In this document: positions 36,567-64,000 of the stretch, one piece after another
Numbering within the stretch: the stretch's first letter is position 1
Layout of the letters: each line of letters begins with the position of its first letter
Assembly (NCBI GenBank): GCA_021735655.1
Contig: JAIPGM010000001.1
Span: 161,728 to 225,727 of the forward strand
Direction of reading: 5' to 3'
DNA: 64,000 nt
DNA from: Candidatus Omnitrophota bacterium
Lineage (GTDB): Bacteria; Omnitrophota; Gorgyraeia; Duberdicusellales; 4484-171
The notes under the pieces: generated by a model
What the model was told of the DNA's origin: nothing
Databases searched by the model: none
The model's input: only the letters and a program-made list of their open reading frames with translations
Program-made: the position numbers and the translations under genes

Positions 36567-37349
36567 ATGAAGTTTAGAAAAAGAATAAAAAATGTATTTT
36601 TCCATAAATCCATTTTGTGGGAGATGTCGATTAAGCAGCTTAAGGCAAAGTATTCTGGTTCTATGTTGGGTATTTGGTGGGCAGTGGCGACCCCTCTTAT
36701 TCTGGCTGTAAGTATTAATTTTATTTTTACTAATGTATTTAAGGTGGGTATTGAAAATTTTACCTTTTTTGTTTTATCAGGGATAGTCCCTTGGCTATTG
36801 TTCTCTAATGCTATAAACGAAGCCGCCGGGTCTTTTATTGCCAATTTTTCGGTATTAAGGCAGGCCATTTTTCCTCGAGAGTTTGTTCCAATGACTTCGA
36901 TTATCTCTAATTTTTTAATTTTTCTGATCGGTTTATTGATTCTGCTTCCTTTTTTTATTGTTTCTAATCCGAGGGTAATTACGGTTTTGCCGTTTCTGTT
37001 GGTAGTTTTATTTTTTTATTTATTTTTTCTTGTCGGGCTTGCTATGATTTTTTCATCTTTAAATGTTTTCTTTCGTGATGTATCCCATCTTTTAGCTATC
37101 GGGTTAATGGTTTGGTTTTGGGTTACGCCTATTTTTTACTCTTTGGATATGTTACCGGCTTCATTTCGCTGGATCTGCTTAAGTAATCCAGTTACTTACT
37201 ATGTAGTTTCTTATAGATTAATTTTGTTTGAAGCGAAGCCGTTATCCCTTCCAATTTTGTTAACTTTATTTTTTATTTCCTTTACGTCATTCATCGTTGG
37301 TTATGCCTTTTTCCTTAAAAATGAAAATAGTTTATTAAAACGAGTATGA
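36567..37349 (+). CDS. ABC-2 type transporter permease (Wzm/KpsM/TagG-like).
   Basis: Six-helix ABC-2 topology, 260 aa. Its stop overlaps the start of the downstream ATPase (ATGA coupling). Confidence 0.75.
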   Translation: MKFRKRIKNVFFHKSILWEMSIKQLKAKYSGSMLGIWWAVATPLILAVSINFIFTNVFKVGIENFTFFVLSGIVPWLLFSNAINEAAGSFIANFSVLRQAIFPREFVPMTSIISNFLIFLIGLLILLPFFIVSNPRVITVLPFLLVVLFFYLFFLVGLAMIFSSLNVFFRDVSHLLAIGLMVWFWVTPIFYSLDMLPASFRWICLSNPVTYYVVSYRLILFEAKPLSLPILLTLFFISFTSFIVGYAFFLKNENSLLKRV

Positions 37350-43163: not shown

Positions 43164-46100
43164 AGAATTATCTAGTCACCTGGGATAAAATATGTAAGGG
43201 TATAACTAAGCAAAAGAAGATATTTTGTGGCCCACACACTGTCCAAATAGATTTAACCGACAAATGCAATAGTAGCTGCGTTGCTTGTTGGATTCACTCA
43301 CCTTTAGTTGAGGAAAAAAAATCATTTCCAGAAGGCAAAAAACAACTTTCTTTCGAATTAGTTAAAAGTTTGATTAATGATTTGTCTGATTTAGGAACTC
43401 AGGAGGTAATTTTATCCGGATCAGGGGAGCCATTTTTATATCCAGAAATAAAAGAGGTTATAAAAAATATAAAGTCAAAAAATATGTATCTAAATATAAT
43501 TACCAATGCTTCTCTTATCGATGAGGAAATGGCAGAGCTGTTAGTAAAATGCAAAGTCGATTTAATTACTGCCAGCATATGGGCCGGTGATGCTGAAACT
43601 TACAGCTTAACTCATCCAGGAAAAAGCGAAGCTGATTTCGAAAAAATAAAGAGTAACTTAAAGAAATTGGCTTTTTATAAGAAGCGGTATGGTTCATTGG
43701 AGCCGCATTTAAAATTATATAATGTAATTTGCAGTAAAAATTATAGAAATATTGAGGAAATGGTTGATTTTGCTAAATCAATGGATGCCGATTCTTTAGA
43801 GTTTCAGGTTGTTGATATAATTTCTGGGAAAACAGATCATTTGGCCCTGAAAGATGCCTATAAGAGCGAGATAGTAAATCAATTGGACAATATAAGAAAG
43901 CGAAAAGATTTAATATCTTTTAATACGCCTAAAGAAATGCCGATAGATAGTTTTATTGATGAGGAATTTTTTGATTTTGGAAAGATTTGGAAAAATTACA
44001 AAAACGGCTTTTGCGTTTCTCAGTGTAGCAGTTCTTTGGTTTGCAAAAAAGATCACGAGATAAAAGATAAGAGAATTATTGTTTCAGAGTCGACATCAAC
44101 CAGAGGGACTCGTCCGGTTGCATTTTGGTATAAATTTGAAAATAATATATGTAAAACTTGCGAGGAAAATATTGAGTGCGTTGACGATGAAAATGCAGTG
44201 AGCATAAAATTGTTGAATATGTTGGGTATTGGTTCATTTTTGAGGAGATTATTGCGCTCTGATTTAGAGAGAGGGATATATGAAAAGCAAATAAATAGCA
44301 TCCCATGTTATATAGGGTGGTATTATTCTCGTATTTTAGCTAATGGTGATGTTATCCCTTGTTGCAAGGCAGGTAAGTTATCTTTAGGTAATATTAAGAA
44401 AAGAACTTTTTCTAAAATTTGGCATTCCTATCGATATAAAAAGTTTCGGCTTAACGCTAAGAATTTAACTAAGCATCATAAGTATTTTTCTAACATCAAT
44501 TGCATCAAGAGTTGCGATAATTGGGGAGTAAATTTAGAAATCGACGGGAGATTGAAGGAATTTGAAAATAAAGAGAAAAAAAAGGAGCCTTACCTTTTAA
44601 CTATCAAGAATAGCATTATAAAGGGTAGGGTTGAGGATACGCTTGCAAAAATTACTCGTAATATTAAACCGAATAATTTAAAAAAGAGATATTCAGAAAT
44701 TTTAGGTGTATTTGATGGTGAACATGGTTATAAAGGTCCATTCCACGTTCAGATAGACTTGACTAATGATTGCAATAACACTTGCATTGCTTGTTGGTGC
44801 AATTCACCTCTTTTGAAAGAGAAACGATTATCGGCTGATAAAAAAAATCAATATTTACCTTTAGGAATGGTAAAGGAATTATTGGATGAGATTACTAATA
44901 TGGGTGCTACTGAGGTCTATTATTCAGGAAGTGGTGAACCATTTATGCATCCAGCGATTATGGAGATTCTCGATTATTCAAAAAAGAAAGGTTTAATCTG
45001 TCACGTAAATACTAATTTTACTCTTCTTAATCAAGAAAAGATAGATTGCTTAATCGATATGGAGGTTGACCATCTTACGGTGAGTGTTTGGGCGGCTACG
45101 GCCGAAACTTATGCAAAAACTCATCCTAATAAAACCGAGGCTGACTTTCAACGGATAAAAGAGAATTTACTATATCTGAACTTACGAAAGAAAAGTAAGC
45201 CCTGTATAAAAATTTATAACGTTATTTTTAACATGAATTACCTTGAAGTTGAGAAGATGCTTGATTTTGCCGTTGAGACTAAATCTGAATCTTTAGAATT
45301 TACCCTTGTAGATACTATGCCTGGGGCTACTGATATGCTTGCTTTAAATCAAGGACAGTTGGATGAGCTTAATGATTTATGCAGGAAAATAAAATTAAAA
45401 TTAGATAAAAATTACATAATTAGGAGTAAAAAGGTATTGCTTTTTCAGTTTGAGCAGTTTTTGAGAAGGATTTCTGTTTCTCAAGATGTCCAGGAGGCAA
45501 AATACGATAGAGGTGTTATTGATAGTATGCCTTGTTATATTGGTTGGCTTTTTGCACGAATAATTCCTAACGGGGAAGTTCATTCTTGTCTTAAGGCGCA
45601 TAGAATTCCGACCGGTTCTTTGTATAAAGATAGATTTTTCGAAATTTGGAATAGTGCTAAACAGGCACATTTTCGTAAAAAGACTTTAGTTTGCAGAAAA
45701 GATGATCCTTTCTTTAGGTTGATTGGCAACGATCCCAATACAAAGGAGGCCGGTTGTTACAAGAGTTGCGATGATATCGGGAGGAACACTTGGATGCATA
45801 ACAAGATGAATATGTTGACGCCACTGGGAAGGCTGACACTTAAGTACGTAGCTAAAGCCATGAAGCCTCTAAGGAGGCTTAGGTCCAAAAACGATAATTT
45901 TAAGAATTACCACAGTGACCCTTTAATTGCCGGGGTCATCCATGGCCGGAAGGCTTTTTTGGGACCCGAACAAGTAGTAATTGATCCGACCAATAAGTGT
46001 AATTTGCAATGCATTTCTTGTTGGATGTATTCGCCATTATTGAAAAAAAATAAACCAGCTTTGGATTTATTGAAACAAGAATTATCTAAAGAGGTACTTA

Positions 46101-47014
46101 TTAAATTAATCGATGATTTAGCTGATTTAGGAACAAAGCGTATTAGGTTCACTGGTGGCGGAGAGCCTTTTATGCATAAAGATTTGATGACAGTAATAGA
46201 GCATGCCCGAAAAAAGAATATTTTAGTTGCGGTAACTACGAACTTTGGTTTGGTCTCTAGACAGGATATTCTTAGATTGTGTGATTTGGGATTGGAGGAG
46301 TTATGCATAAGCATTTGGGGTTCTTCATCGAGAGTCTACAATTTGGTTCATCCTGGTACCGGTGAGGATTATTTTAAGAAATTAAAAGAAAATCTTTCTT
46401 ATTTGAAAGGGCTAAATAAGTATAAACCGCGGACTACCTTTGCTAATGTAATCATGAATAATAATTTCACTGATTTTGAAGCAATGTATGATTTTGCTTT
46501 AGATCATGGAGCTGATGCAGCCTATTTTACCTTGGTTGATATTATTTCCGGTCAAACCGATAAGTTCTTGTTGAATAAAGATGAACGAAGCGAATTGCTA
46601 AAGAGAGCTCTTATGGTTCAGCAACGAAATAAAGATAACAAGCTGCAGCTTGAATTTTTTGAGAATTTTCTAAAAAGAGTATCTAGTTTCCAAGGAGACT
46701 TTGAAAAAGGAGAATATGATAAATCGAGCATTGATCAATTGCCTTGTTATGCCGGCTGGATTTTTTCAAGAGTTTTGGCAGACGGAAGCGTTGCGCCCTG
46801 CTGCCGGGGGGTTAAAAAAATAATCGGCAACATCAAGACTAAATCTTTTAAAGATATTTGGTTTTCGCCCGAATACAATGAGTTTAGAGTTAAAGCAAAG
46901 TATTTATCGAAAAGCAACGCTTACTTTAAGGATATAGGCTGTATAAAAGAATGTGATAATTTGATGCATAATCAGGAGTTTCATAAAAGAATAAATCTAA
47001 AAGAAGGAGGTTGA
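43160..47014 (+). CDS. Triple-module radical SAM protein: three tandem rSAM plus SPASM/twitch-like modules in one 1,284-aa polypeptide.
   Basis: Three CxxxCxxC motifs: CNSSCVACW at about 43264, CNNTCIACW at about 44770 and CNLQCISCW at about 45995. Each is followed by a GGEP-type SAM motif (SGSGEPFLYP, SGSGEPFMHP, TGGGEPFMHK) and a C-terminal Cys-rich auxiliary-cluster region (CYIGWYYSRILANGDVIPCCKAG, CYIGWLFARIIPNGEVHSCLKAH, CYAGWIFSRVLADGSVAPCCRGV). Confidence 0.8.
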   Translation: MKNYLVTWDKICKGITKQKKIFCGPHTVQIDLTDKCNSSCVACWIHSPLVEEKKSFPEGKKQLSFELVKSLINDLSDLGTQEVILSGSGEPFLYPEIKEVIKNIKSKNMYLNIITNASLIDEEMAELLVKCKVDLITASIWAGDAETYSLTHPGKSEADFEKIKSNLKKLAFYKKRYGSLEPHLKLYNVICSKNYRNIEEMVDFAKSMDADSLEFQVVDIISGKTDHLALKDAYKSEIVNQLDNIRKRKDLISFNTPKEMPIDSFIDEEFFDFGKIWKNYKNGFCVSQCSSSLVCKKDHEIKDKRIIVSESTSTRGTRPVAFWYKFENNICKTCEENIECVDDENAVSIKLLNMLGIGSFLRRLLRSDLERGIYEKQINSIPCYIGWYYSRILANGDVIPCCKAGKLSLGNIKKRTFSKIWHSYRYKKFRLNAKNLTKHHKYFSNINCIKSCDNWGVNLEIDGRLKEFENKEKKKEPYLLTIKNSIIKGRVEDTLAKITRNIKPNNLKKRYSEILGVFDGEHGYKGPFHVQIDLTNDCNNTCIACWCNSPLLKEKRLSADKKNQYLPLGMVKELLDEITNMGATEVYYSGSGEPFMHPAIMEILDYSKKKGLICHVNTNFTLLNQEKIDCLIDMEVDHLTVSVWAATAETYAKTHPNKTEADFQRIKENLLYLNLRKKSKPCIKIYNVIFNMNYLEVEKMLDFAVETKSESLEFTLVDTMPGATDMLALNQGQLDELNDLCRKIKLKLDKNYIIRSKKVLLFQFEQFLRRISVSQDVQEAKYDRGVIDSMPCYIGWLFARIIPNGEVHSCLKAHRIPTGSLYKDRFFEIWNSAKQAHFRKKTLVCRKDDPFFRLIGNDPNTKEAGCYKSCDDIGRNTWMHNKMNMLTPLGRLTLKYVAKAMKPLRRLRSKNDNFKNYHSDPLIAGVIHGRKAFLGPEQVVIDPTNKCNLQCISCWMYSPLLKKNKPALDLLKQELSKEVLIKLIDDLADLGTKRIRFTGGGEPFMHKDLMTVIEHARKKNILVAVTTNFGLVSRQDILRLCDLGLEELCISIWGSSSRVYNLVHPGTGEDYFKKLKENLSYLKGLNKYKPRTTFANVIMNNNFTDFEAMYDFALDHGADAAYFTLVDIISGQTDKFLLNKDERSELLKRALMVQQRNKDNKLQLEFFENFLKRVSSFQGDFEKGEYDKSSIDQLPCYAGWIFSRVLADGSVAPCCRGVKKIIGNIKTKSFKDIWFSPEYNEFRVKAKYLSKSNAYFKDIGCIKECDNLMHNQEFHKRINLKEGG

Positions 47015-47020
47015 AGTTAA

Positions 47021-47839
47021 TTGAATATGGCGGGTAAAGTGGGTGCTATCGATTTTCAATTATTTTTAAGAAAAATCAGCCTTGAGCGTTTTTTTCAAAG
47101 TTTTTATTATTTTAAATGGTTGGAATACCCTTTAGTCTACAATAACCTTGAACTAAAAGCAGGTGAACAGTATCTCGATATCGGTAGTGGAAAGTCCATT
47201 TTTCCTCTATTTGTCGTAGCGAAAAATAACTGTAACGTGCACGTATTTGATGATCAGTCCATTATAAAAGACAGTATTACTTATTATCAGAGCAATATTA
47301 GAAAGATGGGGTTATGCAATATTTCTGGAAAAAATTTCTTGATTCACGAAGCTACAGAGAAAGGACAGCTCGATTTTCCTGATAATTACTTTGATAGAGT
47401 TTCTTGTATTTCGGTATTAGAGCATATTAAGGGCAATGGTGATAGTGTAATGATGCAGGAAATATCAAGAATTTTAAAAAAAGGCGGGAGGGCTGTGATA
47501 ACTTTTCCGTTTAATGGCAAGGATTATATAGAAGAAGATAACCCAGAAGGGGTAGGATATTTCCAGCGGAAGTATAGTGTAGCGGCGATTAAAGAGCGGA
47601 TAATTGATCCAGCCAATTTAAAGGTTAAGAAGGTTATATATTTTGGAGAACGTTATATAAGTTTTGGGGAACAATACTTGCAGAATAAATTTAGAAAAAT
47701 AAATTGGCTCATACCTTTATTCGCGCCTATTTTATGGAGGGTGTGCCATTATTATGAAGGTGAATATCGCAATTTTTATGAGCGAGCAATAGATAAAAAA
47801 GGTACTGGCGTAGCGTGTATTGTTTTTGATAAGATTTGA
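47021..47839 (+). CDS. Class I SAM-dependent methyltransferase.
   Basis: YLDIGSGKS is motif I. ISVLEHI and ILKKGGRAVITFP are the post-I and II motifs typical of the Methyltransf_11/23 families. Confidence 0.65.
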   Translation: MNMAGKVGAIDFQLFLRKISLERFFQSFYYFKWLEYPLVYNNLELKAGEQYLDIGSGKSIFPLFVVAKNNCNVHVFDDQSIIKDSITYYQSNIRKMGLCNISGKNFLIHEATEKGQLDFPDNYFDRVSCISVLEHIKGNGDSVMMQEISRILKKGGRAVITFPFNGKDYIEEDNPEGVGYFQRKYSVAAIKERIIDPANLKVKKVIYFGERYISFGEQYLQNKFRKINWLIPLFAPILWRVCHYYEGEYRNFYERAIDKKGTGVACIVFDKI

Positions 47840-47864
47840 ATAAGCAAAATTGTGAAAATTTAAG

Positions 47865-48737
47865 ATGCTGACTTTTCCTAAATATCTTTCAATCCAAACT
47901 ACTTCTCTATGCAATGCTTCTTGTGTATTTTGTCCCTATAAAGATATAAAAGATGTAAGGTTCAAGACAATAATGGATAGAGGCCTTTATGAAAAAGTTA
48001 TTAATGAATGCAGTAACCATAAAGATATTGAATGCATTATAGTTTACATGAATAACGAGCCCTTAACTGATCCTTGCATAGTTGAGAGAATAAATTATGC
48101 CAAAGATAAAGTTCCTTGGGCTAGTGTGCATATCTTGACCAATGGAGCCTTACTTAGCGATGACCTGGCTGATAAACTTATTGATTCTCGTCTAGACTGG
48201 ATCGGGGTAAGCTTTCATGGGATCAGAAAAGAAACTATAGAGCGGGCAATGGGCATTCCTTATGAGATCAGCTTGAAGAGAATAACCAATTTTATCGAAA
48301 AAGCAAAAGCGAAGAAAAATATAAAGAACTATTTTATGCTAACTTTTTTGCGCCATGTATATTTGACTCCTCAAGAGCGGGAAGAGGCTATTAGTTTTTG
48401 GAGAAAACTGGGGATAGAAAGAATAAGCTATTTTGACGGGCCCATATCTCGGGCCAGCAATGTAACTAATTTACCAAAAGTCTACCATCAAGGCAAGATC
48501 AGTGGATGTAATTCTATCTGGGCTGATGAGATGCTTCATGTGGTAGAGGATGGTAAGGTTATTTTGTGCTGCATGGATTGGCGAAGAGAAGTAATTTTAG
48601 GCGACCTAAACAAACAAAGCATCCATGAAATATGGAATGGCAAAAGAAGAAAGATTTGGGATATGATTCGTGGAACAGGAGAGGTTCCTGAAGGATTTTT
48701 GTGCCGCAGGTGCGAAGAGGCTAAGCAAGAGATTTAA
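47865..48737 (+). CDS. Radical SAM protein with a SPASM/twitch-like C-terminal domain.
   Basis: SIQTTSLCNASCVFCPY is the CxxxCxxC motif. The C-terminal GCNSIWADEMLHVVEDGKVILCCMDW...ILGDLNKQSIHEIWNG is SPASM-like. Confidence 0.75.
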   Translation: MLTFPKYLSIQTTSLCNASCVFCPYKDIKDVRFKTIMDRGLYEKVINECSNHKDIECIIVYMNNEPLTDPCIVERINYAKDKVPWASVHILTNGALLSDDLADKLIDSRLDWIGVSFHGIRKETIERAMGIPYEISLKRITNFIEKAKAKKNIKNYFMLTFLRHVYLTPQEREEAISFWRKLGIERISYFDGPISRASNVTNLPKVYHQGKISGCNSIWADEMLHVVEDGKVILCCMDWRREVILGDLNKQSIHEIWNGKRRKIWDMIRGTGEVPEGFLCRRCEEAKQEI

Positions 48738-48740
48738 AGG

Positions 48741-50909
48741 ATGCTCATGAAAAATGAAAATTGCGAATTAATTTTTGTAATGACTCCGCCTTGGCAGACA
48801 AAGATGCCGCCTTTAGGCTTGGCCTATTTAGCCAGTTTTTTGAAGTCAAACAATATTAACGTAGATGTCATAGATTTGAATGTGGATCTTTTTAATAATG
48901 CTCAAGAATGCCATAAATATTTTTGGGATATAGAAACAATAAGTAATTTTGGTTCGCTTCGGATTGCCCAAGATTTTATTAAGGCATTCAATAAAGAACT
49001 TGAAAATTTTGTTGATCGAATCTGTAGTCATCCTGCAAAGTTGGTCGGTTTTTCTACTACGGTAGCTAGTATAAATATCGCCACCTACCTTACTCATCGG
49101 ATAAAATCAAAAGATCCTTCGAAAATAATTATTTTAGGCGGGCCAGGATGTTTTTTGGATACTTGCAATATAGATCCTGAAAGGGTGGTAGATATTTTTG
49201 TCATTGGCGACGGAGAGCTGCCTTTATTGGATATAGTTAAAAGATTTAAAGATAAACAGTCTTTGTCTGATTTGTTGGAGGTTCCTGGGACAATAATTTG
49301 TCTAGATAAGAAATATCATGACTTTTCACCGGCGAATCCTGTTAAGCAGATAAACGATATTCCTTTTCCTACTTTTTCGGAGTTCGAGCTGGATGAATAC
49401 CATAAAGAACATGTTTACAAACCAATTCCAATTATTACCAGCAGAGGCTGTATAAATAAATGCAGTTTTTGCGTAGACCATAAGCTCAGTAATCCTTTTA
49501 GATTTCGAAATCCGCACAAAATATTTGAAGAGATAAAATACCATGTAGAAAATAATTGTAAAAAAGAGTTTGAGTATAACGATCTACTATGTAATGGAAA
49601 TTTAAAGCAATTGGAGCAGCTTTGCGACCTGATCATTGAAAGCGGCCTGTCTATAAAATGGACAAGCTATGCGGCCATAAGGAAAGGTATGAGTTTAGAG
49701 TTATTTCAGAAGATGCAGAAGGCGGGATGCAGATTTTTATGTTATGGTATGGAGTCAGCTTCAGATTTAGTTTTAGATAAGATGAATAAAAGATATAATT
49801 CTCATACGGCAGAGGATGTTATTAGAAAAACCCATTCCTCAGGTATCGAGACAGGAATCAACATTATAGTTGGCCACCCCGGTGAGTCGAATAAAGAATT
49901 TAACCAAACTTATAGATTTATCAAAAGAAACAAAGACTACATTGATCAAATCACAAACCTGTCTACTTGTTTTTTAATACCGACTTCGGATTTAGCTGAG
50001 AATATGAGCAATTTCGGTATTTATTTTTATTCTCCTTTGAAAAGGATGCCAAAATTCTTATTTCGAAATAAAGAGCTTGAGCCTAATTATGAAAATTTCT
50101 GCGCCTATCCTCATAATACTCCTGCGATTAGAGCAAAACGAGCCAGAAAAATTATAACTCTTGCTTCAAAGATAGCTATACCGATTACTATTTTGAACTA
50201 TCAAAAGCAGCACGATATGGGTATGGGGGATTTTCTAGTCCAAACTCAAGAAGCGGAAAAAGTTTTTCGTTGTAAGAAGTTAAAGATAGACTTTAGTCAA
50301 AAAGGAAGCGGTAGGTTATATTATGACAATAAGGCCTTAACTAAAGACGTAGGCCTAAATGCTTCCTTTCATGCCAATGGGCGATGGTTTGATTCTTCTT
50401 CGGCAAAGTGTCGGGTAGCCAGATCCAACAGAGGCTTGGAAATAAGAATGAGTTGGCCGGAGATTTCTTTGTTTCAATGCTGGACGATAAAAACAGAAGG
50501 TGATTCTTCTGTCGAATGGCGGGTAAAAACAGAGTTTAAAAGGTCTTTGGAGCTATCTCAATATAAGATCGGCATTATCTTGTCACAGGAATACGATAGT
50601 TGCCAAGTTAATGGTGAAGAACACCGATTCTCCGATAATTTTACCGAGAACTGGGAGGAAGCATTGTTTTTGAAGCTTGATTCGATAAGCATCGGCTCTA
50701 AGGGATTTTTACCGATGATGACCCTGAAGGAAGAATCCAAGGGTGGTGTGTTCGTGCAGGTCCATAATACCCCGCTTCACTTGCATACTCGAATGATTAA
50801 TTTTTGCCGTTTTGGCGAGAACCTTAAAGATGACCACAGCACTGAATCTTTATTGATCAAAAAAGGTGATGTTTGGAAAAATAAGCTAAAAATAAAATTA
50901 AAGGTTTAA
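48741..50909 (+). CDS. B12-binding radical SAM protein with a C-terminal copy of the shared ~120-aa domain.
   Basis: ITSRGCINKCSFCVDH is the CxxxCxxC motif, after an N-terminal Rossmann B12-binding region. The C-terminal 150 aa align with the Wzt-extension repeats. Confidence 0.75.
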   Translation: MLMKNENCELIFVMTPPWQTKMPPLGLAYLASFLKSNNINVDVIDLNVDLFNNAQECHKYFWDIETISNFGSLRIAQDFIKAFNKELENFVDRICSHPAKLVGFSTTVASINIATYLTHRIKSKDPSKIIILGGPGCFLDTCNIDPERVVDIFVIGDGELPLLDIVKRFKDKQSLSDLLEVPGTIICLDKKYHDFSPANPVKQINDIPFPTFSEFELDEYHKEHVYKPIPIITSRGCINKCSFCVDHKLSNPFRFRNPHKIFEEIKYHVENNCKKEFEYNDLLCNGNLKQLEQLCDLIIESGLSIKWTSYAAIRKGMSLELFQKMQKAGCRFLCYGMESASDLVLDKMNKRYNSHTAEDVIRKTHSSGIETGINIIVGHPGESNKEFNQTYRFIKRNKDYIDQITNLSTCFLIPTSDLAENMSNFGIYFYSPLKRMPKFLFRNKELEPNYENFCAYPHNTPAIRAKRARKIITLASKIAIPITILNYQKQHDMGMGDFLVQTQEAEKVFRCKKLKIDFSQKGSGRLYYDNKALTKDVGLNASFHANGRWFDSSSAKCRVARSNRGLEIRMSWPEISLFQCWTIKTEGDSSVEWRVKTEFKRSLELSQYKIGIILSQEYDSCQVNGEEHRFSDNFTENWEEALFLKLDSISIGSKGFLPMMTLKEESKGGVFVQVHNTPLHLHTRMINFCRFGENLKDDHSTESLLIKKGDVWKNKLKIKLKV

Positions 50910-50919
50910 AAATTTACAT

Positions 50920-53900
50920 ATGAATCTAACAGATAAAATTTTATTAGTGGGTCTTGCTCCTTGGGGAGTAGATACGCCACCCCTAGCCTTAGCTTGTTTA
51001 AGTACCTCTTTGAGGAATGCAAATATTAGCACTGAAGTATTTGATATGAATATTGAGCTTTACAATGCCGTTAATGAGCAAAGTAAATATTTGTGGAGTA
51101 TGAATTATTCTCATTGGTGGCGAGAGCCAGAAAGATATTCTGATATTAGAAAGGAATTAGATGTTTACATAGAACCTTTAATAAAGAAAATTTTAAGTTT
51201 TAAGCATAAGATAGTTGGCTTTTCACTTTCTACTAATTGCTCTGACCTTTTGTTGGAGGAGATAGTAAAAAGAATAAAAACTAGCGATCCCGATAAGGTA
51301 ATAATTCTAGGTGGTGTTTCAATTTCAATAAATGAGCAGAGAAATGATTTAATTAGGAAGTTAAGGACGCAGATAGATTACTGTGTGATTGGAGAAGGAG
51401 AAGAGGTACTTGTCGAATTGGTAAAGAAAATAGCTAGCAATAAGCTAGAAGATATAGGTCGATTGCCAGGCATAATTAAGAAGGGTGAGTTTGAAGGAGT
51501 TAAACAGAGGGCAGAGATCAAAGATTTTAATTCGCTGCCATTTCCTACATTTGAAGAATTCAATTTAAAAAAATATAAAGCACCCGTGAGCTTACCTATG
51601 GAATTTTCTCGTGGCTGCGTAGGTAGTTGTCCTTTCTGCGATTTTAAAAGCGTTTCTTCTGCCTTTAAGTCAAAAGCACCTTATTATATTATAAGCCAGA
51701 TAAAATTCTATAAAGAAAAATACAATATTATTCATATGAGCCTATCTGACCCAGCAGTAAATGGAGATATTAGGGTTCTTGAGCAAATATGTGATTTATT
51801 AATCGAAGCTAACCTTTCTGTAAATATAAATTCTCTGGCAATTCCCCGCAAGGAAATGACCTTAGAACTATTAGAGAGAATGAAGAAAGCAGGTTTTTAT
51901 CGTTTGGAGTATGGTCTAGAGAGCGGTTCGAATAAGATTCTCAAAGCAATGAGGAAAATATTTACTGTCGAAATTGCCGAGAAAGTTATCCGAGATACTT
52001 ATCAAGCAGGGATAAAAACATATCTCTATTTAATTGTGGGTTATCCACAGGAGACAGAGGATGATCTCAATCAGACCAAAGATTTTTTGAATAGAAACCG
52101 TCAGTATATTTCCATGATAAAGTCTATCAACCCTCTTTATGTAATGGCCGGTTCAGAGATATTTTGCAATCCCGATAAATATCAAGTCACATTACCGGCT
52201 AAAGATAGTGACAAGAGATGGTTTATTGGTGATAAGAATACATATTCTTTGCGAAAAGCCCGGATATTTGAACTTAAAAAAGTAGTTGCTAGTTTAAATA
52301 TTCCCTTTACCGAAGAGGCGGAATCTTTAGAGTTTACTGGAAACTCTTTAAATAAACAACAAGGAATCGTTGTAGGTGGAGGCAATCCATACGATAAAGA
52401 TGAGTCAACTACAGAAAATAAAATTATGTCTAGAGGATATGCAGAACAAAAAACAGATAAATATAGAGATAGTTTTTTATTAATTAATTTGCCCCCTTGG
52501 GGTCAAGAAAATCCTCATATCGGAGTAGGCTATGTGTGTAGCTATCTTCGTCATAAAGGCTTTAAGCCATCGGTCTTAGACTTGAATAAGAAATTTTATT
52601 TGAGTCAGCCAAATTTTCAAATGCTCTGGCATGTAGAAAATAAAAACTTTTGGTCAAATCAAGATTCTTTTCCTTTGATTTTAAAATTATTTAAGAAGGA
52701 AATAGATAAGGCAATAAATGATATTTTGTCTTCAGGTTGCAGCCTATTAGGTTTCTCGGTAGTTGACCCTAAAGAAAAAATAACTATAGAGTTCATTAGG
52801 AGAATAAAACGTAGGGATAAAAGTAAAAAGATAATTTTAGGTGGTCCGGCAACTTCTACTTATGAGCAGAGAAAGATATTTTTGGATAATGTTGAGGAAG
52901 AGATAGATACTTTTGTGATCGGCGAAGGCGAGCAAACTTTGTTTAAGGTAGTAGACCGAATTTTAAAGAAAAAAGAGCTTAAAGGTATCGAGGGTTGTTG
53001 CAGCCGGGATAATGGTAAGTGGGTTTGTCGAGAAAGCGGTGAGATTGTTTCTTTAGATAAGATTCCTTTCCCGACCTATGAGGAATTTGATTTGAGTCTA
53101 TACGGTAAATCTTTCCTTGTTGAATGGTCAAGAGGCTGTAGGAGTAAATGCGCTTTTTGCAAAAATTATCGGCTTTTTTCTTCTTATCGGTCAAAGTCAG
53201 CTGAATCGGTTATGAAGGAATTGAGATATCATAAGCAAAAGTATAATGTAGATGAATTCACTGTAGTCGATAATATTTTGAATGGTGATCTAAATACCTT
53301 GAATGATATTTGCGACAGGATAATAAAGGAAAATCTTCAAATTAGATGGACTGGGCAAATTGCCCCCCGCAAAGATATGAATTTTGAATATTTCCAAAAA
53401 ATGAAGCAGGCCGGATGTTTTAAACTTCAAATTGGCCTTGAGTCTGGTTCGAACAAGGTGTTAAAGTTAATGCATAAGAGCTTTACGGCAGAGATTTCTG
53501 AAAAAAATATAATTTTTGCTAAGAAAGCAGGCATTGAGACAGAAATTTTTACAATGATTGGTTTTCCCGGGGAGGCTGAGAAAGATTTTCAAGAAACTTA
53601 CGATTTTATAAAAAGAAATGCAAAATATCTGGATACCATAAAATCGATAAACACCTTACATCTAATAGCCGGAACTGAAATCTATGAGCAGAGAGAGCGT
53701 TTTAAAATAAAGCCTTTACCTCAAGAAAACTGGCATTATTTATGGGAAACTTATGAGGGAAATACATACAAGGTACGGGAAGAAAGAGCTAAGCGTATTC
53801 TAGGGTTAGCTTGCGATCTTAAGATTAAAGTTATGGAGACTAATATTATAGAGGGAAAAGAGCAAAAAGTTTTGCTTGAAAATCTCGGCTTATTGGAAAA

Positions 53901-54078
53901 ATCCCTGAATTCTTTGCAAGAGTTACCAGAAAAAGAAGAATTTAAGCTAAAAAGAAGAAATATTAATAAATGGTTAATCCTGATTTTTGTTTCTTTTTAC
54001 ACATTTTTTTATATTATTTATTTTTGGGTATTTATGATTTTTAGAAATAAAGTTCTCTTGGGGGGAAGAAAAAAGTGA
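50920..54078 (+). CDS. Tandem double B12-binding radical SAM protein with a C-terminal membrane anchor.
   Basis: Two complete B12-rSAM units with EFSRGCVGSCPFCDF and EWSRGCRSKCAFCKNY. The C-terminal hydrophobic helix is WLILIFVSFYTFFYIIYFWVFMIF. Confidence 0.75.
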   Translation: MNLTDKILLVGLAPWGVDTPPLALACLSTSLRNANISTEVFDMNIELYNAVNEQSKYLWSMNYSHWWREPERYSDIRKELDVYIEPLIKKILSFKHKIVGFSLSTNCSDLLLEEIVKRIKTSDPDKVIILGGVSISINEQRNDLIRKLRTQIDYCVIGEGEEVLVELVKKIASNKLEDIGRLPGIIKKGEFEGVKQRAEIKDFNSLPFPTFEEFNLKKYKAPVSLPMEFSRGCVGSCPFCDFKSVSSAFKSKAPYYIISQIKFYKEKYNIIHMSLSDPAVNGDIRVLEQICDLLIEANLSVNINSLAIPRKEMTLELLERMKKAGFYRLEYGLESGSNKILKAMRKIFTVEIAEKVIRDTYQAGIKTYLYLIVGYPQETEDDLNQTKDFLNRNRQYISMIKSINPLYVMAGSEIFCNPDKYQVTLPAKDSDKRWFIGDKNTYSLRKARIFELKKVVASLNIPFTEEAESLEFTGNSLNKQQGIVVGGGNPYDKDESTTENKIMSRGYAEQKTDKYRDSFLLINLPPWGQENPHIGVGYVCSYLRHKGFKPSVLDLNKKFYLSQPNFQMLWHVENKNFWSNQDSFPLILKLFKKEIDKAINDILSSGCSLLGFSVVDPKEKITIEFIRRIKRRDKSKKIILGGPATSTYEQRKIFLDNVEEEIDTFVIGEGEQTLFKVVDRILKKKELKGIEGCCSRDNGKWVCRESGEIVSLDKIPFPTYEEFDLSLYGKSFLVEWSRGCRSKCAFCKNYRLFSSYRSKSAESVMKELRYHKQKYNVDEFTVVDNILNGDLNTLNDICDRIIKENLQIRWTGQIAPRKDMNFEYFQKMKQAGCFKLQIGLESGSNKVLKLMHKSFTAEISEKNIIFAKKAGIETEIFTMIGFPGEAEKDFQETYDFIKRNAKYLDTIKSINTLHLIAGTEIYEQRERFKIKPLPQENWHYLWETYEGNTYKVREERAKRILGLACDLKIKVMETNIIEGKEQKVLLENLGLLEKSLNSLQELPEKEEFKLKRRNINKWLILIFVSFYTFFYIIYFWVFMIFRNKVLLGGRKK

Positions 54079-56380: not shown

Positions 56381-57058
56381 TTGGGTTATCTTGTTGAGAC
56401 GCATCAACTAACTAAAATATTTAAGCCACACAAAGGCATTGGTGAGAAGCTTAGAGGCTCAGCAGCTCGAACCGAGGTAAAGGCTGTAGATAGAGTTAGT
56501 TTTTCTTTAGAAGCAGGTTCCACCATGGCTATTATGGGTCCTAATGCTGCCGGAAAAACAACTCTTTTAAAACTAATCGCTTCTTTAATTATTCCAACCA
56601 GTGGTCGGATTTCGGTTAAAGGTACAATTGGTTTGGTTACCGGGGAAGAGAGGAGTTTTTACTGGCGCTTGAGCGGTCAGCAGAATTTAGAGTTTTTTGC
56701 TGCTTTGTACGGTTTGGGAAAATCCGAAGCCAAGAGGCGAATCCAGCAGTTGGTTGAATTGCTGGGCATCGAGGATATGAGTGATGTTCTGGTTCAAGAG
56801 TATTCCTCGGGATACAAACAGAGGCTGGCTATTGCTAGAGGATTATTGCATGATCCGGATATCTTGCTTTTAGATGAACCCACTAAAAATTTGGATTCTT
56901 CTCACGCTGAACATTTAAGAATTTTTATAAGAGAAAACTTAGGTAAAGAAAGCAAAAAGACAGTTATTTTTACTAGTCATAACTTAGAGGAAGCTTCGTT
57001 TTTAGCGAATAAATTAGCAGTAATGGATAAGGGTTGCCTAAGGCAACAGGATAGTTGA
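56381..57058 (+). CDS. ABC transporter ATP-binding protein (second ABC-2 exporter ATPase).
   Basis: Walker A GPNAAGKTTLLKLI, signature YSSGYKQRLAIARGLL and Walker B LLLDEPTKNLD are present. The TTG start comes from the ORF track. Confidence 0.8.
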   Translation: MGYLVETHQLTKIFKPHKGIGEKLRGSAARTEVKAVDRVSFSLEAGSTMAIMGPNAAGKTTLLKLIASLIIPTSGRISVKGTIGLVTGEERSFYWRLSGQQNLEFFAALYGLGKSEAKRRIQQLVELLGIEDMSDVLVQEYSSGYKQRLAIARGLLHDPDILLLDEPTKNLDSSHAEHLRIFIRENLGKESKKTVIFTSHNLEEASFLANKLAVMDKGCLRQQDS

Positions 57059-57059
57059 T

Positions 57060-57863
57060 ATGGGAAAAATTATAGCATTTATTAAGAAAGATTTTCAAAT
57101 TTTTTTAAGTTATAAGCTATTTTTCATGTTGCGTTGGGCGGGTATTGTTATACCGGTTGTTACTTTTTATTTTATATCTAAGTTTATCGACCAGCAGGGG
57201 AATATTGCCTTCAGCGAATATCGAGGAGGGTACTTCCCTTTTGTGGTTATAGGCTTGTCAGTATACGGCTATCTTCTTGTCTTGTTGCGTTCAGCTTCTG
57301 AAGGTATGCGGCAGGAGCAGATGTACGGAACTTTAGAGGTTATTTTTGCTACCCCGGTAAAAAGTAGTATCGTAGCAATTTCGGCAGGTTTGTGGAATAG
57401 TCTTATTGCTTTAGTTGCTATGGTGGTATGTTTGGTAACCGGAATTTTATTGTTTAAGGAGGGCATTGTTGCTTTGGATTGGTTTGCCTTATTTTTAACT
57501 TTAATTATGATTGTCGTTAATTTTTTAAGCATAGGTATATTGGCTGCTGCAGTAATAGTGGTTTGTAAAAGAGGTGATCCGATTGCTTGGTTTGCTAGTA
57601 CATTCTTTGCTTTTTTTGGCGGAGTTTATTATCCAGTGAGTGTTTTGCCTAAAGGGTTTCAGAAAATATCTCAGTTTTTACCGATCACTTATGCTGTCAG
57701 GGCTTTGCGTAAAGTTATACTTGCCGGGGCAACATCTGTCGAGATAACTAACGAGTTAGTTGTGTTGTTTATTTGTGCAGTATGTTTGTTGCCTTTATCT
57801 TTAATTATTTTTAGTTATGCTGTGCGGCGAGCTAAGATGAGCGGTAGCTTATCTTATTATTAG
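57060..57863 (+). CDS. ABC-2 type transporter permease (partner of the 56381 ATPase).
   Basis: 267 aa with six predicted helices. It starts 2 nt after the ATPase stop. Confidence 0.7.
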   Translation: MGKIIAFIKKDFQIFLSYKLFFMLRWAGIVIPVVTFYFISKFIDQQGNIAFSEYRGGYFPFVVIGLSVYGYLLVLLRSASEGMRQEQMYGTLEVIFATPVKSSIVAISAGLWNSLIALVAMVVCLVTGILLFKEGIVALDWFALFLTLIMIVVNFLSIGILAAAVIVVCKRGDPIAWFASTFFAFFGGVYYPVSVLPKGFQKISQFLPITYAVRALRKVILAGATSVEITNELVVLFICAVCLLPLSLIIFSYAVRRAKMSGSLSYY

Positions 57864-60544: not shown

Positions 60545-61783
60545 ATGAATATATGTATATTAGGTAAATATCCTCCGATACAAGGAGGGGTTTCAACTTG
60601 CAATTATTGGTTGAGCAAGGCTTTAGGGCAACGTGGACATAAGGTTTTTGTTGTAACCAATGCTGAAGAAGCTGGTTTTGAATATAGAGAGCAGATTTAT
60701 CCTTCTGATGCCCGTCAGCTTGAGCCAAAAAATGTAAGAGTATTCAGTACGCAGCCTTTGAGTAGGCGTTTTATCCCTCAGTATCAGCCGTTTATTGCTA
60801 AGCTTGCCAGCATGGCAATAGAAATTGTGAAAAAGAATAAAATAGATGTGCTTTACTCAAATTATCTGCTTCCTTATGGGGTTGCTGGTCTTTTGGTTAA
60901 GCAAGCTACGGGTGTGCCTTGGTTTTTAGATCATGCTGGCAGTGACATTACTAATTTATTTGATGAGCCAGAGCTTAGGCCTATTTTTCTTGAGCTGTTT
61001 AAAAATGCAGATTTGGTAGTTAATTCGCCCCAGGTCAAAAGCCGGTTGGTAGATTCAGGGGTTATCCCTGAAGATAAACTATCACCTTCTATTGGAAAGA
61101 TGTCTTACACTAGGGCTCTAGACGATAGTTTTCACCCTCAAGCAAAACCTTTTGATTTAAGTGATTATTTTGATCGGTTTAACAGACGCTTACCAGTTTT
61201 TACTTTTCTAGGAAAGATTTCTCCCCTCAAAAAAACTTTTGCCTTTGTTGAAGCTGCAGCTAAATTGCCTAAAGGTAAGTTTTATCTTTTGTTTGTTACC
61301 GAAAAAGGGCGGATGCGGATTCATTTGAGGAATTTAATAAGAGAAAAGGGTTTGTTGCCTTACACTTGCCTGTTGGATTTTAAGCCGCCTTGGCTGGTAC
61401 CTTCTATCATTACCGCTTCTACGGCAGTGGTTGCCCCAGAAAGCGAAGAGACTCCTTATTTGCCTGAAGGCACTCACGGATCCAAAATAGGTTTAGAGGC
61501 AATGCTTTGTGGGCGTTGTGCGGTAATCGGAAAAGGAATGAGTAAGAAAGCTTTTTATTATGGTTGTAAAGATAAAGAACACTTTTTGGTGGTTGATCCT
61601 CATAATATTAATACTTTTGCTAAAAAACTTAAGCTTATTGTAGATGATCCTGGTTTAGCTTATAAAATTGGAAAAAAAGCCAGGGCTGTTTGGACTGCCA
61701 GACGGAATTTTTTTGAGGCTTCCCTAGACTTGTTTGTTAAAAATTTCAAAATAGCTATCCTAAAGAATTCATGCCTAAGGTAA
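60545..61783 (+). CDS. Glycosyltransferase (GT4-like).
   Basis: The N-terminal ICILGKYPPIQGGVSTCNYWLSKALGQRGHKVFVV is typical of GT4. The upstream RBS is GGAAAGGAAGGG. Confidence 0.6.
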   Translation: MNICILGKYPPIQGGVSTCNYWLSKALGQRGHKVFVVTNAEEAGFEYREQIYPSDARQLEPKNVRVFSTQPLSRRFIPQYQPFIAKLASMAIEIVKKNKIDVLYSNYLLPYGVAGLLVKQATGVPWFLDHAGSDITNLFDEPELRPIFLELFKNADLVVNSPQVKSRLVDSGVIPEDKLSPSIGKMSYTRALDDSFHPQAKPFDLSDYFDRFNRRLPVFTFLGKISPLKKTFAFVEAAAKLPKGKFYLLFVTEKGRMRIHLRNLIREKGLLPYTCLLDFKPPWLVPSIITASTAVVAPESEETPYLPEGTHGSKIGLEAMLCGRCAVIGKGMSKKAFYYGCKDKEHFLVVDPHNINTFAKKLKLIVDDPGLAYKIGKKARAVWTARRNFFEASLDLFVKNFKIAILKNSCLR

Positions 61784-63264
61784 TACTTATAAGTATTGAT
61801 GGGGCTTGTTGGCCGGCAATGAATCACTTGTTTAAGAAAGGTGATTTACCGGTTTTAAGCCGCTTAGTAGACCAAGGGGTCAGCGGGACTCTTAATAATA
61901 TTAATATGCTTGAGGCTGATCTTTGGGAGATTTTTGATATATACCGAGAGTATATCAAGAAGATCCCTCGTTTAGGGAGCCATTCGGATTTATCGGATTG
62001 GTTGACTTCAATGACTGGTTTTTTACCTAAGGTTCATGGAGTTATTTCCTCAACCGAAAAAGATTCACGTGGCAGAGAAATACCAGCTTCTCGAAGGACC
62101 AGGAAACGTCCGGTAGCATGGGAGATCTTGGCAAATAAAGGCAAAACAATAGGGGTAATTGGCTGTATGGGTGATTGGCCCCCGATAGCTTTGCCTCATT
62201 ATAATGTATCTAGATTTTACAATGTTGATGATATTTATTTTCGCAAAGCTAATAAGGATGCTGACAGTGGCTGGAAGCTAAACTTAGATAATCTGCATTC
62301 CCGGTTAACTTACCCGGCTAACTTAGCAAAAGAGCTGCTTAAGTTTAAGCCGGATAGTCAAATAGAGTCATTCATTCAGAGAGGTAAGCCTTATATTAGA
62401 GGGGCTTTGTCTTATAAATTACGCTACGATAGTTTGTATTGCCAATGGGCTAAATATCTTCTTAAACGTTTTCCTCAGCCTGATTTTTTTGCCCTTTCTT
62501 TGCATGAAATACATTCCTTGTCACATCTTTTCTGGGATTGCCTGCCTCTGGCCAAGAAAAGATTTAAGGGCGCGGTTCATCGGCGTCGACAAAAAAAGTA
62601 TGGCGGGATAATTGAGGATTATTATCGTTACATTGATAAAAATATTGGCGAAGTATTGAAACTGAGCGATAGTGATTCTACGGTTATGATTCTTTCTCAC
62701 TACGGCATGGTCGATTCACGAATATTTAAGAAGTACATATTTATGGATAAAATTTATCATAAATTAAATTTTTTCTTTTATGATGACGGTATTGATTGGG
62801 ATCGAACCAGCGTGTATGATAATGTTAATCCTTGGGGTATATACGCTGTACGAAAGGGTTTTATCCGCGGACGCAACCCCCAAAAAATATTTTTATCTTT
62901 AAGCAGGAAAATGAAAAAGATAATCACCAATAAAGGTGAGCCTTTGTTTTTGGATATATCATTTGAAAAACAAGATAATTCATTTAAAGTAGTGCCGAAT
63001 TACAAGGCCATAAACTATTCGACAAAGATATTAATCAAGGGCGAGGAGATACCAGTAAAGGAGTTAGTAGATTTTAAACCGCATTATTCTATACATAATC
63101 CTGAAGGGGTTTTCATTGTCTCAAGTCGCAAGAGACAATCTTTAAAGGTTATCAAGGATAAAGTTGATTTTTTGGACATTTTGCCTACGATTTTTTCCTT
63201 TTATGGGATAAAAAAAGATCCTAAAATGTCCGGTGAGGTATTTGTAGACAGAAAAAGGAGGTAA
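61771..63264 (+). CDS. Alkaline-phosphatase-superfamily enzyme (type I phosphodiesterase / nucleotide pyrophosphatase or sulfatase-like).
   Basis: The N-terminal KVILISIDGACWP is the metal-binding core motif, and MILSHYGM corresponds to the SDHG block. Confidence 0.5.
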   Translation: MPKVILISIDGACWPAMNHLFKKGDLPVLSRLVDQGVSGTLNNINMLEADLWEIFDIYREYIKKIPRLGSHSDLSDWLTSMTGFLPKVHGVISSTEKDSRGREIPASRRTRKRPVAWEILANKGKTIGVIGCMGDWPPIALPHYNVSRFYNVDDIYFRKANKDADSGWKLNLDNLHSRLTYPANLAKELLKFKPDSQIESFIQRGKPYIRGALSYKLRYDSLYCQWAKYLLKRFPQPDFFALSLHEIHSLSHLFWDCLPLAKKRFKGAVHRRRQKKYGGIIEDYYRYIDKNIGEVLKLSDSDSTVMILSHYGMVDSRIFKKYIFMDKIYHKLNFFFYDDGIDWDRTSVYDNVNPWGIYAVRKGFIRGRNPQKIFLSLSRKMKKIITNKGEPLFLDISFEKQDNSFKVVPNYKAINYSTKILIKGEEIPVKELVDFKPHYSIHNPEGVFIVSSRKRQSLKVIKDKVDFLDILPTIFSFYGIKKDPKMSGEVFVDRKRR

Positions 63265-63267: not shown

Positions 63268-63561
63268 ATGAAAGCCGACCAGTTAAAGGGCAAGTGCATG
63301 ACTATTAACGAAGAAATTATTTCTTGGCGAGAGATCGACAAAGAGGTAGTATTTCTTAATAAACAGGAAAAAAGTTTTTACGAATTAAACAAAACAGCTG
63401 AGATCATTTGGCGCCAGTTAGCCAAAGGCGGTAAACTGACTCAGGTAATTTCTCAGGTTCAAAAGAAATATAAGAAAGTAGGTAAGCAAGACATAGAAAG
63501 AGATGTAATTGCTTTTATTGCAGATGGAATTAAGAAAAAAATATTTATTGTTAATAAATAA
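63268..63561 (+). CDS. PqqD-family protein (RiPP recognition element-like peptide chaperone).
   Basis: The protein is 97 aa. ISWREIDKEVVFLNKQEKSFYELNKTAEIIWRQL...DIERDVIAFIADGIKKKI fits the PqqD fold consensus (W...e.vll....y.LN..a..iW..ldG). It lies immediately upstream of, and overlaps, an rSAM gene. Confidence 0.55.
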   Translation: MKADQLKGKCMTINEEIISWREIDKEVVFLNKQEKSFYELNKTAEIIWRQLAKGGKLTQVISQVQKKYKKVGKQDIERDVIAFIADGIKKKIFIVNK

Positions 63562-64000
63562 TGGCTAAGAAAAAACATTTTCTTCAAAATCCATTTTTTA
63601 TTATCCAATGGCATATAACTGAACGCTGTAATTGGCAGTGTAAGCATTGCTATCAGGACAAGGCGCCGGTGCCTGAACTGCCTTTTGGCAAGCTAGAAGG
63701 GGTTCTTGGCCAATGTATGGAACTGTTTAAGACTCTAAACGTTCCCGCTAAGCAAGCTTACATGCATATAGGGGGAGGAGAGCCTTTCTTGCGGAAGGAT
63801 TTTTTTAAATTCTTAAAGTTGCTGAGCGTGCATAATGATTATTTAAGAATTCAGATAATGACTAACGGCTCATTACTTACGCAGTCGGTAGTTAAAGAAT
63901 TAAAAAGAATGAAGGTGAACGCAGTGCAGGTTAGCTTAGAAGGATTTGAGCAAACTAATGATCAAATAAGAGGTCCGGGAAGTTTTAATAAGGCTTTGCG
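63561..64000 (+). CDS. Radical SAM (SPASM-type, PqqE/anSME-like) protein, 3'-truncated by the window end.
   Basis: The ATG overlaps the PqqD-like stop (TAATG). ITERCNWQCKHCYQ is the CxxxCxxC motif and HIGGGEPFL is the SAM motif. I read the frame codon by codon to position 64000 and found no stop. Confidence 0.75.
   Translation, partial: MAKKKHFLQNPFFIIQWHITERCNWQCKHCYQDKAPVPELPFGKLEGVLGQCMELFKTLNVPAKQAYMHIGGGEPFLRKDFFKFLKLLSVHNDYLRIQIMTNGSLLTQSVVKELKRMKVNAVQVSLEGFEQTNDQIRGPGSFNKAL

Follow-up and report, generated by a model that had tools for sequence, protein, structure and literature searches.

A PqqD-family protein and a radical SAM enzyme encoded by overlapping genes of an Omnitrophota bacterium: a probable peptide maturase pair from an uncurated subfamily

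What is the task of the two overlapping genes with which a 64-kb stretch of DNA from a Candidatus Omnitrophota bacterium ends, and on what substrate would their products act? The stretch (64,000 nt; contig JAIPGM010000001.1, positions 161,728 to 225,727 of the forward strand), which is called the window throughout, closes with a gene for a PqqD-family protein (63268..63561, + strand) and the first 146 codons of a gene for a radical S-adenosylmethionine (SAM) enzyme (63561..64000, + strand), which is cut by the window end. The original prediction had taken them for a PqqD-like recognition element translationally coupled to a SPASM radical SAM enzyme and thus for the core of a system maturing peptides that are made by the ribosome and modified after translation (RiPPs). 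Our analysis indicates that the pair is probably a peptide maturase that depends on a RiPP recognition element (RRE) and comes from an uncurated subfamily. Pairs of an RRE and a radical SAM/SPASM enzyme are a well-known route to modified peptides, and the pair itself is therefore no surprise. The interest lies in the radical SAM family, which is claimed by no curated model and is spread over Omnitrophota, Planctomycetales, the candidate phyla radiation (CPR), DPANN archaea and many anaerobes, and in its relatives, through which a family of peptides without annotation comes to light. The leader of these peptides is lasso-like and their cores are rich in CxxC, which gives a concrete, testable prediction of the substrate.

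The PqqD gene codes for 97 amino acids (aa) and carries a ribosome-binding site, AGGAGG (63256..63261, + strand, read from the sequence), which lies 6 nt 5' of the ATG and within the final codons of the upstream gene. The search of 63268..63561 with hidden Markov models, proposed as a check in the original prediction, gave a match to the Pfam model PF05402 above its gathering score (43.4 against 23.4 bits, E = 4e-11, residues 26-86). The protein is 100% identical to MCF7907320.1, a 'PqqD family protein' from a metagenome-assembled genome of Candidatus Omnitrophica/Omnitrophota, and this identical entry was the only one returned by a homologue search of protein collections. A profile combining six relatives with the protein encoded in the window was compared with solved structures and matched TbiB1 (5v1u; E = 3e-16, 78 aligned residues), as well as the lasso-type PqqD chaperones 9x90_B and 9x8z_B, TfuB1 (6jx3) and PqqD (5sxy/3g2b). 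The closest NCBIfam models were those for lasso_PqqD, with 43.5 bits (cutoff 70) and 34.9 bits (cutoff 80). These matches bear out the PqqD-like RRE placed at 63268. The 97-aa protein is likely to be a stand-alone RRE, for which leader binding is predicted.

The PqqD and radical SAM genes overlap in the sequence TAATG (63559..63563, + strand, read from the sequence), in which the last base of the former's TAA stop codon (63559-63561) is also the first base of the latter's ATG (63561-63563). Two stop codons stand just 5' of this ATG in the radical SAM frame, where a Shine-Dalgarno-like sequence is absent. Coupling by termination and reinitiation is therefore the natural reading, in agreement with the translational coupling first proposed. 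The radical SAM fragment matched PF04055 (70.3 bits, cutoff 29.5) and its translation contains CNWQCKHC (63627..63650, + strand), a CX3CX2C motif, which ligates the [4Fe-4S] cluster at which SAM is cleaved. The three cysteines C23, C27 and C30 are invariant in our alignment of the family (A1). Since the catalytic core begins at about residue 12, the enzyme has no fused RRE and would need a separate one. The radical SAM part of the earlier assignment was thereby confirmed. The SPASM part was not observed, because the domain is C-terminal and would lie past base 64000; we infer from the relatives a SPASM-like C-terminus and a full length of about 350-390 aa. The window copy is very probably full length.

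In all, 163 related radical SAM loci were collected; scans with degenerate patterns gave 160, and all the related enzymes have the motif QWH(I/L)TE(R/K)CNxxCxHCY in common. The 80 genome-derived loci came, besides the groups named above, from Thermodesulfobacteriota, Nitrospirota, Clostridia, Thiomargarita and others. Protein searches with the window fragment gave nothing above 54-55% identity, and the metagenome scan nothing above 56%. Complete radical SAM open reading frames (ORFs) among the relatives are mostly 340-395 aa long, and 87 of the 140 full-length relatives contain, according to a strict pattern, the SPASM-type seven-cysteine motif CX9-16GX4C...CX2CX5CX5C...C. The canonical SPASM motif, CX9-15GX4C...CX2CX5CX3C...C, provides seven cysteines for two auxiliary clusters; its fourth cysteine gap is 3, whereas that of the relatives is 5. 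Among the 34 closest relatives, each uninterrupted ORF of at least about 340 aa has the seven-cysteine SPASM-like motif, with its Gly replaced by Asp in L087, and the exceptions are cuts at contig ends, frameshifts and truncations. The Pfam SPASM model PF13186 gave no match at E ≤ 0.01 to the closest full-length relative (L004), and the NCBIfam radical SAM/SPASM families align with the full-length relatives from end to end. One deltaproteobacterial homologue (L001/L043, 10001-11063) is split by a frameshift, which places its SPASM part in another frame, and adjoins DruA and an IS66 transposase. Another assembly has it unbroken, with 355 aa (P0011).

The closest loci, with 41-56% radical SAM identity, repeat the overlap of the PqqD and radical SAM genes. 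Tight junctions were found in L004 and L013 (both ATGA), L091 (GTGA), L012 (an 11-nt overlap) and L007 (an 8-nt gap). The closest locus with flanking sequence, L091 (56% identity for the radical SAM enzyme and 52% for PqqD), has the order alkaline phosphatase (AlkP)-like gene, PqqD, radical SAM. In the Omnitrophota locus L004 (radical SAM identity 55%), a family GT4 glycosyltransferase, PqqD and the radical SAM enzyme are followed, 27 nt downstream of the latter, by a peptide of 52 aa (MAKKKKTYEKPNVKKV...SSCGACVGCGSCACGSCGCAGCS), 3' of which lie genes for an HprK-like protein, a second radical SAM-SPASM enzyme and an ABC-2 exporter. Other gene orders on the same theme were found in L006, L007/L085, L012/L013, L074, L087, L010, L017, L123 and L163. 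Small peptides adjoin the pair in L004, L006, L007/L085, L012, L074, L010, L017, L123 and L163. They are 47-68 aa long and may precede or follow the PqqD-radical SAM pair, the upstream position being used in several relatives. Their common leader (alignment A3) is K-K-Y-(E/Q)-K-P-x-(I/V/L/M)-(K/R), and CxxC and small residues abound in their cores, for example SCGACVGCGSCACGSCGCAGCS or CKQCSSCHNCR. A profile of these peptides recovered 65 additional ones, all of them 'hypothetical' and belonging to no Pfam or NCBIfam family. Further genes accompanying the relatives are those for a lasso B2-like protein with a transglutaminase fold (only in L007 and L087), NTP_transf_5, an HprK-like kinase, an S24-type peptidase, GT4 and an ABC-2 exporter. 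Discrete lasso-type RREs recognize [Y/W]xxPx[L/V/I/F/A] and require its Tyr and its Pro in order to bind (PMC13381572), and the YxxPx(I/V/L) leader of the relatives fits this motif. The profile matches of the RRE, the conserved overlap and the leader-bearing, Cys-rich peptides of the closest loci together sustain the claim that the pair is the core of a RiPP maturation system.

Two peptide groups deserve separate mention. Unannotated peptides of 40-57 aa (L123, 1507-1650; L163, 6661-6804; proteins P0163-P0225) follow a radical SAM-PqqD pair and are of the form M..KKYEKPKIVKQTKMxFPIDIIEATGKGVVCKQCSSCHNCR, a form which many metagenomes show in highly conserved shape and for which neither Pfam nor NCBIfam has a model. 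Omnitrophota peptides of the second group (L017, 3387-3551; P0180, P0206, P0208, P0214, P0222 and P0223) share the YxxP leader and have the core ...NYLAAIFVGTALAGC(T/S)P(A/V)KS, which looks like a hydrophobic segment with a lipobox-like LAGC end and only five residues after the Cys. They may be either RiPP cores or tiny lipoproteins.

The gene context of the relatives varies with their similarity to the window fragment, as was seen when loci flanked on either side by 1.5 kb or more were counted by radical SAM score. Of 16 loci scoring at least 120 bits, PqqD was found in 8, a B12-type radical SAM enzyme in 5, GT4 in 4 and a large Cys-tailed protein in 2. The respective numbers were 1, 4, 2 and 8 among the 26 loci with 105-120 bits, and 2, 0, 2 and 15 among the 37 loci below 105 bits. 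Across the loci, the presence of PqqD tracks with that of leader-type peptides. The window enzyme falls in the PqqD/small-peptide part of its family. In the distant loci, the radical SAM gene usually adjoins that of a membrane protein of about 300 aa with a (GGGC)n-like tail, and one such protein was confirmed as TIGR04222 (129.7 bits, cutoff 43). Neighbours of the TIGR04222 type, at 36-44% radical SAM identity and without PqqD, occur in L064 (9042-11041), L016, L030, L062, L071, L076, L079, L083 and about 20 more loci. A 246-aa protein, nucleotidyltransferase-like as judged by eye only, is conserved in 11 of the 36 TIGR04222-type loci. Two further candidate substrates, with unusual tails of low complexity, adjoin radical SAM homologues: a protein of 123 aa whose end reads (AT)n(GT)n...GTTGCAGCCVAHTD (L104, 2976-3347) and a 282-aa protein with a (CYS)n repeat end, CASCASCYSCYSCYSC... 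(L088, 2231-3079).

These distant members raise the question whether the window enzyme, too, might mature the Cys-rich C-terminal tail of a larger membrane-anchored protein, as they appear to do. The (GGGC)n-like tailed neighbour is present in about one third of the distant loci, and even the closer loci L084 (52%) and L005 (48%) lack PqqD and encode proteins of 80-84 aa with an N-terminal hydrophobic segment and a Cys-rich tail. Loci of this kind are, however, devoid of PqqD, whereas in the window PqqD is coupled to the radical SAM gene. PqqD goes together with leader-type peptides, and none of the window proteins has a Cys-rich tail. We therefore consider tail maturation by the window enzyme unlikely.

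Comparison with known systems places the enzyme nearest to peptide maturases. The curated families which matched it best, ACGX, SbtM, GeoRSP and MftC, all of them scoring below their cutoffs, are peptide-modifying radical SAM/SPASM enzymes or their close kin. Judged by these matches, the window enzyme is an uncurated relative of peptide-modifying radical SAM/SPASM enzymes and a member of no named family. ACGX (TIGR04340) was the top curated family both for the fragment, with 92.6 bits over positions 2-135 of the 341 in the model, and for the full-length relatives, which it matched end to end (positions 2-339 of 341). The ACGX system is defined computationally, and we know of no chemistry for it; our literature search on ACGX, SbtM or RiPPs combining radical SAM, RRE and HprK returned nothing relevant. 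The peptides of the relatives resemble those of the ACGX system in having cores of Cys-small-small-Cys repeats. No ORF for an ACGX-repeat peptide (TIGR04341) was found in the window, and the models of these peptides matched neither the L004 peptide (E ≤ 0.01) nor those of seven other relatives (E ≤ 1). Unlike ACGX, the enzyme type described here is accompanied by a discrete PqqD, GT4, an HprK-like kinase and B12-type radical SAM enzymes.

SbtM (TIGR04082; cutoff 350) ranked second with the fragment (78.6 bits) and scored 127-151 bits with the full-length relatives; whichever protein was tested, it was one of the three best curated families. The matches start at about position 190-199 of the 516 positions of the model, and the N-terminal extension of SbtM is therefore absent here. 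In a passage of PMC11626156 citing Lewis et al. 2021, SbtM is described as a radical SAM/SPASM maturase which acts on peptide Cys and forms thio(seleno)oxazole. The families of the sactipeptide and ranthipeptide maturases AlbA, StsB, PapB and SCIFF gave weak matches (70-92 bits); these systems similarly use radical SAM/SPASM enzymes, which form bonds between carbon and the sulfur of Cys in Cys-rich peptides that bear a leader. Such maturases usually have a fused N-terminal RRE, unlike the window enzyme, and the fourth cysteine gap of the SPASM motif is 5 in the relatives, against the canonical 3. In PqqD/PqqE and MftB/MftC, a small PqqD-family chaperone likewise works with a radical SAM/SPASM enzyme on a peptide. 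MftC (cutoff 265) scored 68 bits with the fragment and 121-137 bits with the relatives, and no mft genes are present.

The lasso-type RREs TbiB1, TfuB1 and PbaB1, together with LppB of the linear polyphosphorylated peptides, have the leader motif YxxPx(I/V/L) in common with the relatives' system. The HprK-like kinase, NTP_transf_5 and the B2-like/S24 peptidase constitute the toolkit of paeninodin-type lasso peptides and linear polyphosphorylated peptides, encoded in glycosyltransferase-rich loci (PMC13381572), and the relatives carry the same toolkit genes. In contrast to the lasso systems, the catalytic partner here is a radical SAM enzyme, and the lasso_PqqD scores are below the cutoffs. A lasso system proper was rejected for the window on these scores and because it contains no Asn-synthetase-like lasso cyclase and no B2.

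Several points weigh against the peptide maturase reading. When all six frames of the 64 kb were scanned for C-termini rich in Cys and for the leader motif of the relatives, no precursor ORF came to light. The earlier remark that no precursor is visible upstream of the pair is thus borne out, and the intergenic gaps within 29-64 kb (at most 144 bp) are too short for a precursor gene. The SPASM domain of the window copy itself lies unseen beyond base 64000, and a truncated 209-aa relative without SPASM occurs in two assemblies (L002 and L003). Some close CPR and DPANN relatives have neither a PqqD gene nor a recognizable leader peptide. The ACGX cutoff of 400 bits is far from reached by the relatives L004 (174), L007 (181), L064 (145) and L009 (143), so that the function of that family is not transferable. 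The AlphaFold model of the PqqD protein from the single sequence was poor and all-helical (predicted local distance difference test 58), and hence offers no independent support for the fold; the RRE fold consists of a three-stranded sheet and a three-helix winged helix-turn-helix. Finally, the neighbourhood looks glycan-centred, with many glycosyltransferases, Wzt/TagH-like exporters and a giant multi-enzyme ORF. As for the precursor, its location beyond position 64000 is plausible, since there is none in the window and L004 has its peptide downstream of the pair. By analogy with the relatives' loci we infer that a precursor exists in this genome, as well as its position and type.

A mechanism for the pair can be proposed on this basis. 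The PqqD protein would bind the YxxPx(I/V/L) leader of a precursor which is synthesized on the ribosome and whose gene lies outside the window, in the simplest case directly downstream, and would present the precursor core to the radical SAM enzyme translated from the overlapping gene. The enzyme would cleave SAM at the [4Fe-4S] cluster bound by CNWQCKHC, and the resulting 5'-deoxyadenosyl radical would abstract a hydrogen atom from the peptide, while auxiliary clusters of the SPASM type would help to modify residues of the Cys-rich core. The substrate is expected to have about 45-70 aa, with K-K-Y-(E/Q)-K-P-x-(I/V/L)-K as its leader and a core that is made up of small residues and rich in CxxC. 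The product might be further tailored by B12-type radical SAM enzymes and GT4 and exported by an ABC-2 pump. As to the chemistry, we can offer a guess: it would be directed at cysteine and could yield thioethers (sactionine or ranthionine type) or heterocycles of the thiooxazole type, such as SbtM makes from Cys, the two being about equally likely.

The genes which precede the pair may serve such tailoring. The pair ends a same-strand block in which at least 10 radical SAM domains lie within about 24 kb, among them those of a radical SAM gene block at 40797..54078 (+ strand; Pfam and NCBIfam matches). This block encodes a 788-aa HpnJ/BchE-like radical SAM protein of the B12 type (domain assigned by NCBIfam alone), a 1284-aa fusion of three complete radical SAM+SPASM modules (43160-47014; Pfam), a SAM methyltransferase, a 290-aa radical SAM-SPASM protein, a 722-aa B12-type radical SAM protein and a 1052-aa fusion of two B12-type radical SAM proteins (50920-54078; Pfam and NCBIfam), all on the + strand. 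The double fusion scored 280.1 against a cutoff of 281.85 with TIGR03975, the 'RiPP maturation radical SAM C-methyltransferase'. The modules of the fusions match stand-alone genes of L004 (4404-5513) and L074 (6576-8318), and one triple-fusion module has its match in the second radical SAM enzyme of L004 and L006. To our knowledge, multiple radical SAM fusions of such kind seem rare. Downstream of the block follow two glycosyltransferase genes, an ABC-2 exporter, a HemW-like radical SAM gene, an alpha/beta hydrolase, GT4, the AlkP-like gene, PqqD and the radical SAM gene. The ABC-2 exporter (ATPase and permease; 56381..57863, + strand; PF00005 and PF01061) would be the likely export step; its counterparts in L004 and L009 share 48% + 38% and 41% + 37% identity with it, respectively. 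The HemN-family radical SAM gene (57871-59217), a borderline HemW match (205.5 against a cutoff of 205.4), is the sole minus-strand gene in this region. The GT4 glycosyltransferase (60545..61783, + strand; Pfam GT4/GT1) has homologues sharing the locus of the radical SAM gene, mostly next to it, in 12 loci (L004 with 58% identity, L104 46%, L007 44%, L087 39% and others). The last gene before the pair codes for a 497-aa protein of the type I phosphodiesterase/alkaline phosphatase superfamily (61771..63264, + strand; PF01663, 61.6 bits), ends 3 nt 5' of PqqD and is 49% identical to its counterpart which precedes the pair in L091. It probably belongs to the same operon as the pair. Rfam gave no match in the window, and the promoter and terminator scan showed background level only. 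Homologues of the B12-type radical SAM proteins occur in 11-14 loci of the subfamily. Since these, the triple-fusion module, GT4 and the exporter recur in the cassettes of the relatives, the block is read as one pathway with the pair, and the enzymes encoded at 40797-54078 are probably further tailoring enzymes of it. The pair thus closes an unusually radical SAM-dense cluster, with triple radical SAM-SPASM and double B12-type fusions, in Omnitrophota, a phylum from which we know of no characterized natural products.

The same neighbourhood could also be taken for a glycan or envelope pathway, in which the enzyme would act on a non-peptide substrate (a sugar, lipid or cofactor) with PqqD as a generic partner. 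There are four glycosyltransferase genes, two ABC-2 exporters (in one of them the ATPase is TagH/Wzt-like), an enzyme resembling phosphodiesterases and a giant ORF composed of carbohydrate-active domains nearby. The truncated relatives in L002/L003 adjoin Glyphos_transf and CDP-OH_P_transf genes, and the CPR and DPANN relatives show no peptide or PqqD. On the other hand, all the solved or characterized PqqD-family proteins matched by the window protein bind peptides, the closest relatives with enough flanking sequence carry peptides, and RiPP clusters inside glycosyltransferase-rich loci have been documented (PMC13381572). A non-peptide substrate is thus, in our judgement, distinctly improbable.

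The position of the AlkP-like gene (61771-63264) directly before the pair, an order which recurs in L091, suggests yet another role, that of a maturase of this neighbour like the anaerobic sulfatase-maturating enzyme (anSME), itself a radical SAM/SPASM enzyme. The AlkP-like protein, however, matches the phosphodiesterase/nucleotide pyrophosphatase (NPP) family and not the sulfatases, and this family uses a Ser/Thr nucleophile and is not known to use formylglycine. Moreover, the anSME model scored about 66 bits with the full-length relatives (cutoff 349), anSMEs use no PqqD, and most relatives keep PqqD and the peptide yet have no AlkP-like gene. We regard this role as very improbable. Ordinary pyrroloquinoline quinone (PQQ) biosynthesis by pqqD/pqqE, or a lasso B1 function, to which the PqqD family match, the lasso_PqqD models and the B2-like genes of L007 and L087 might point, can practically be dismissed as far as the window reaches: the PqqD equivalog (TIGR03859, 27 against 46 bits) and the lasso models were all below cutoff, PqqE (TIGR02109) did not rank among the fragment's 25 best families and reached 95-117 of the required 381 bits in the full-length relatives, and the window contains no pqqA, pqqB or pqqC; pqqA-E-like genes in the downstream sequence had been named beforehand as the mark of PQQ biosynthesis.

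Returning to the peptide maturase, a wider and rather doubtful proposal may be put forward. The operon, of at least 24 kb and at least 10 radical SAM domains, might make a heavily cross-linked, C-methylated and glycosylated Cys-rich peptide, and the radical SAM family might be an oxygen-independent counterpart to multinuclear non-heme iron-dependent oxidases (MNIOs); we advance the two parts jointly and with considerable reserve. The tails of TIGR04222 proteins are proposed MNIO substrates, and a related MNIO forms a Cys-derived thiooxazole in bufferins, whose precursors are not of the TIGR04222 type (PMC12452194). About one third of the genomes with TIGR04222 are without MNIO genes, and the text of that paper does not discuss an association of radical SAM enzymes with TIGR04222 (PMC12452194). 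The idea of thiooxazole chemistry gains interest because of these proposed substrates, which concern the relatives of the window enzyme and not the window itself. If there were such an anaerobic route to metal ligands of the thiooxazole type, two unrelated enzyme superfamilies would be linked to one product class.

The remainder of the window is occupied by genes at a greater distance from the pair. A giant ORF (56-29311, + strand) codes for 9751 aa and has no in-frame stop in the preceding 55 nt, so that it may start before the window. Its domains are GT1, a 4-alpha-glucanotransferase of family GH77, Bac_transf, an ELFV dehydrogenase, a pyridoxal phosphate-dependent decarboxylase, GH100 and again GT1. 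Giant genes are already known in Omnitrophota, and the report on them makes no mention of radical SAM, glycosyltransferase or ABC transporter genes (bioRxiv 10.1101/2023.11.21.568195). Between the giant ORF and the radical SAM block, a complete Opp-type peptide/oligopeptide ABC importer (29352-35115, + strand) is encoded, which consists of SBP_bac_5, two permeases and two ATPases. It is followed by a flavin amine oxidase-like gene (35259-36566) and by the gene for an ABC-2 exporter ATPase (37346-40813, + strand), in which the first approximately 250 aa are TagH/Wzt-like and a C-terminal extension of about 900 aa has no Pfam domain.

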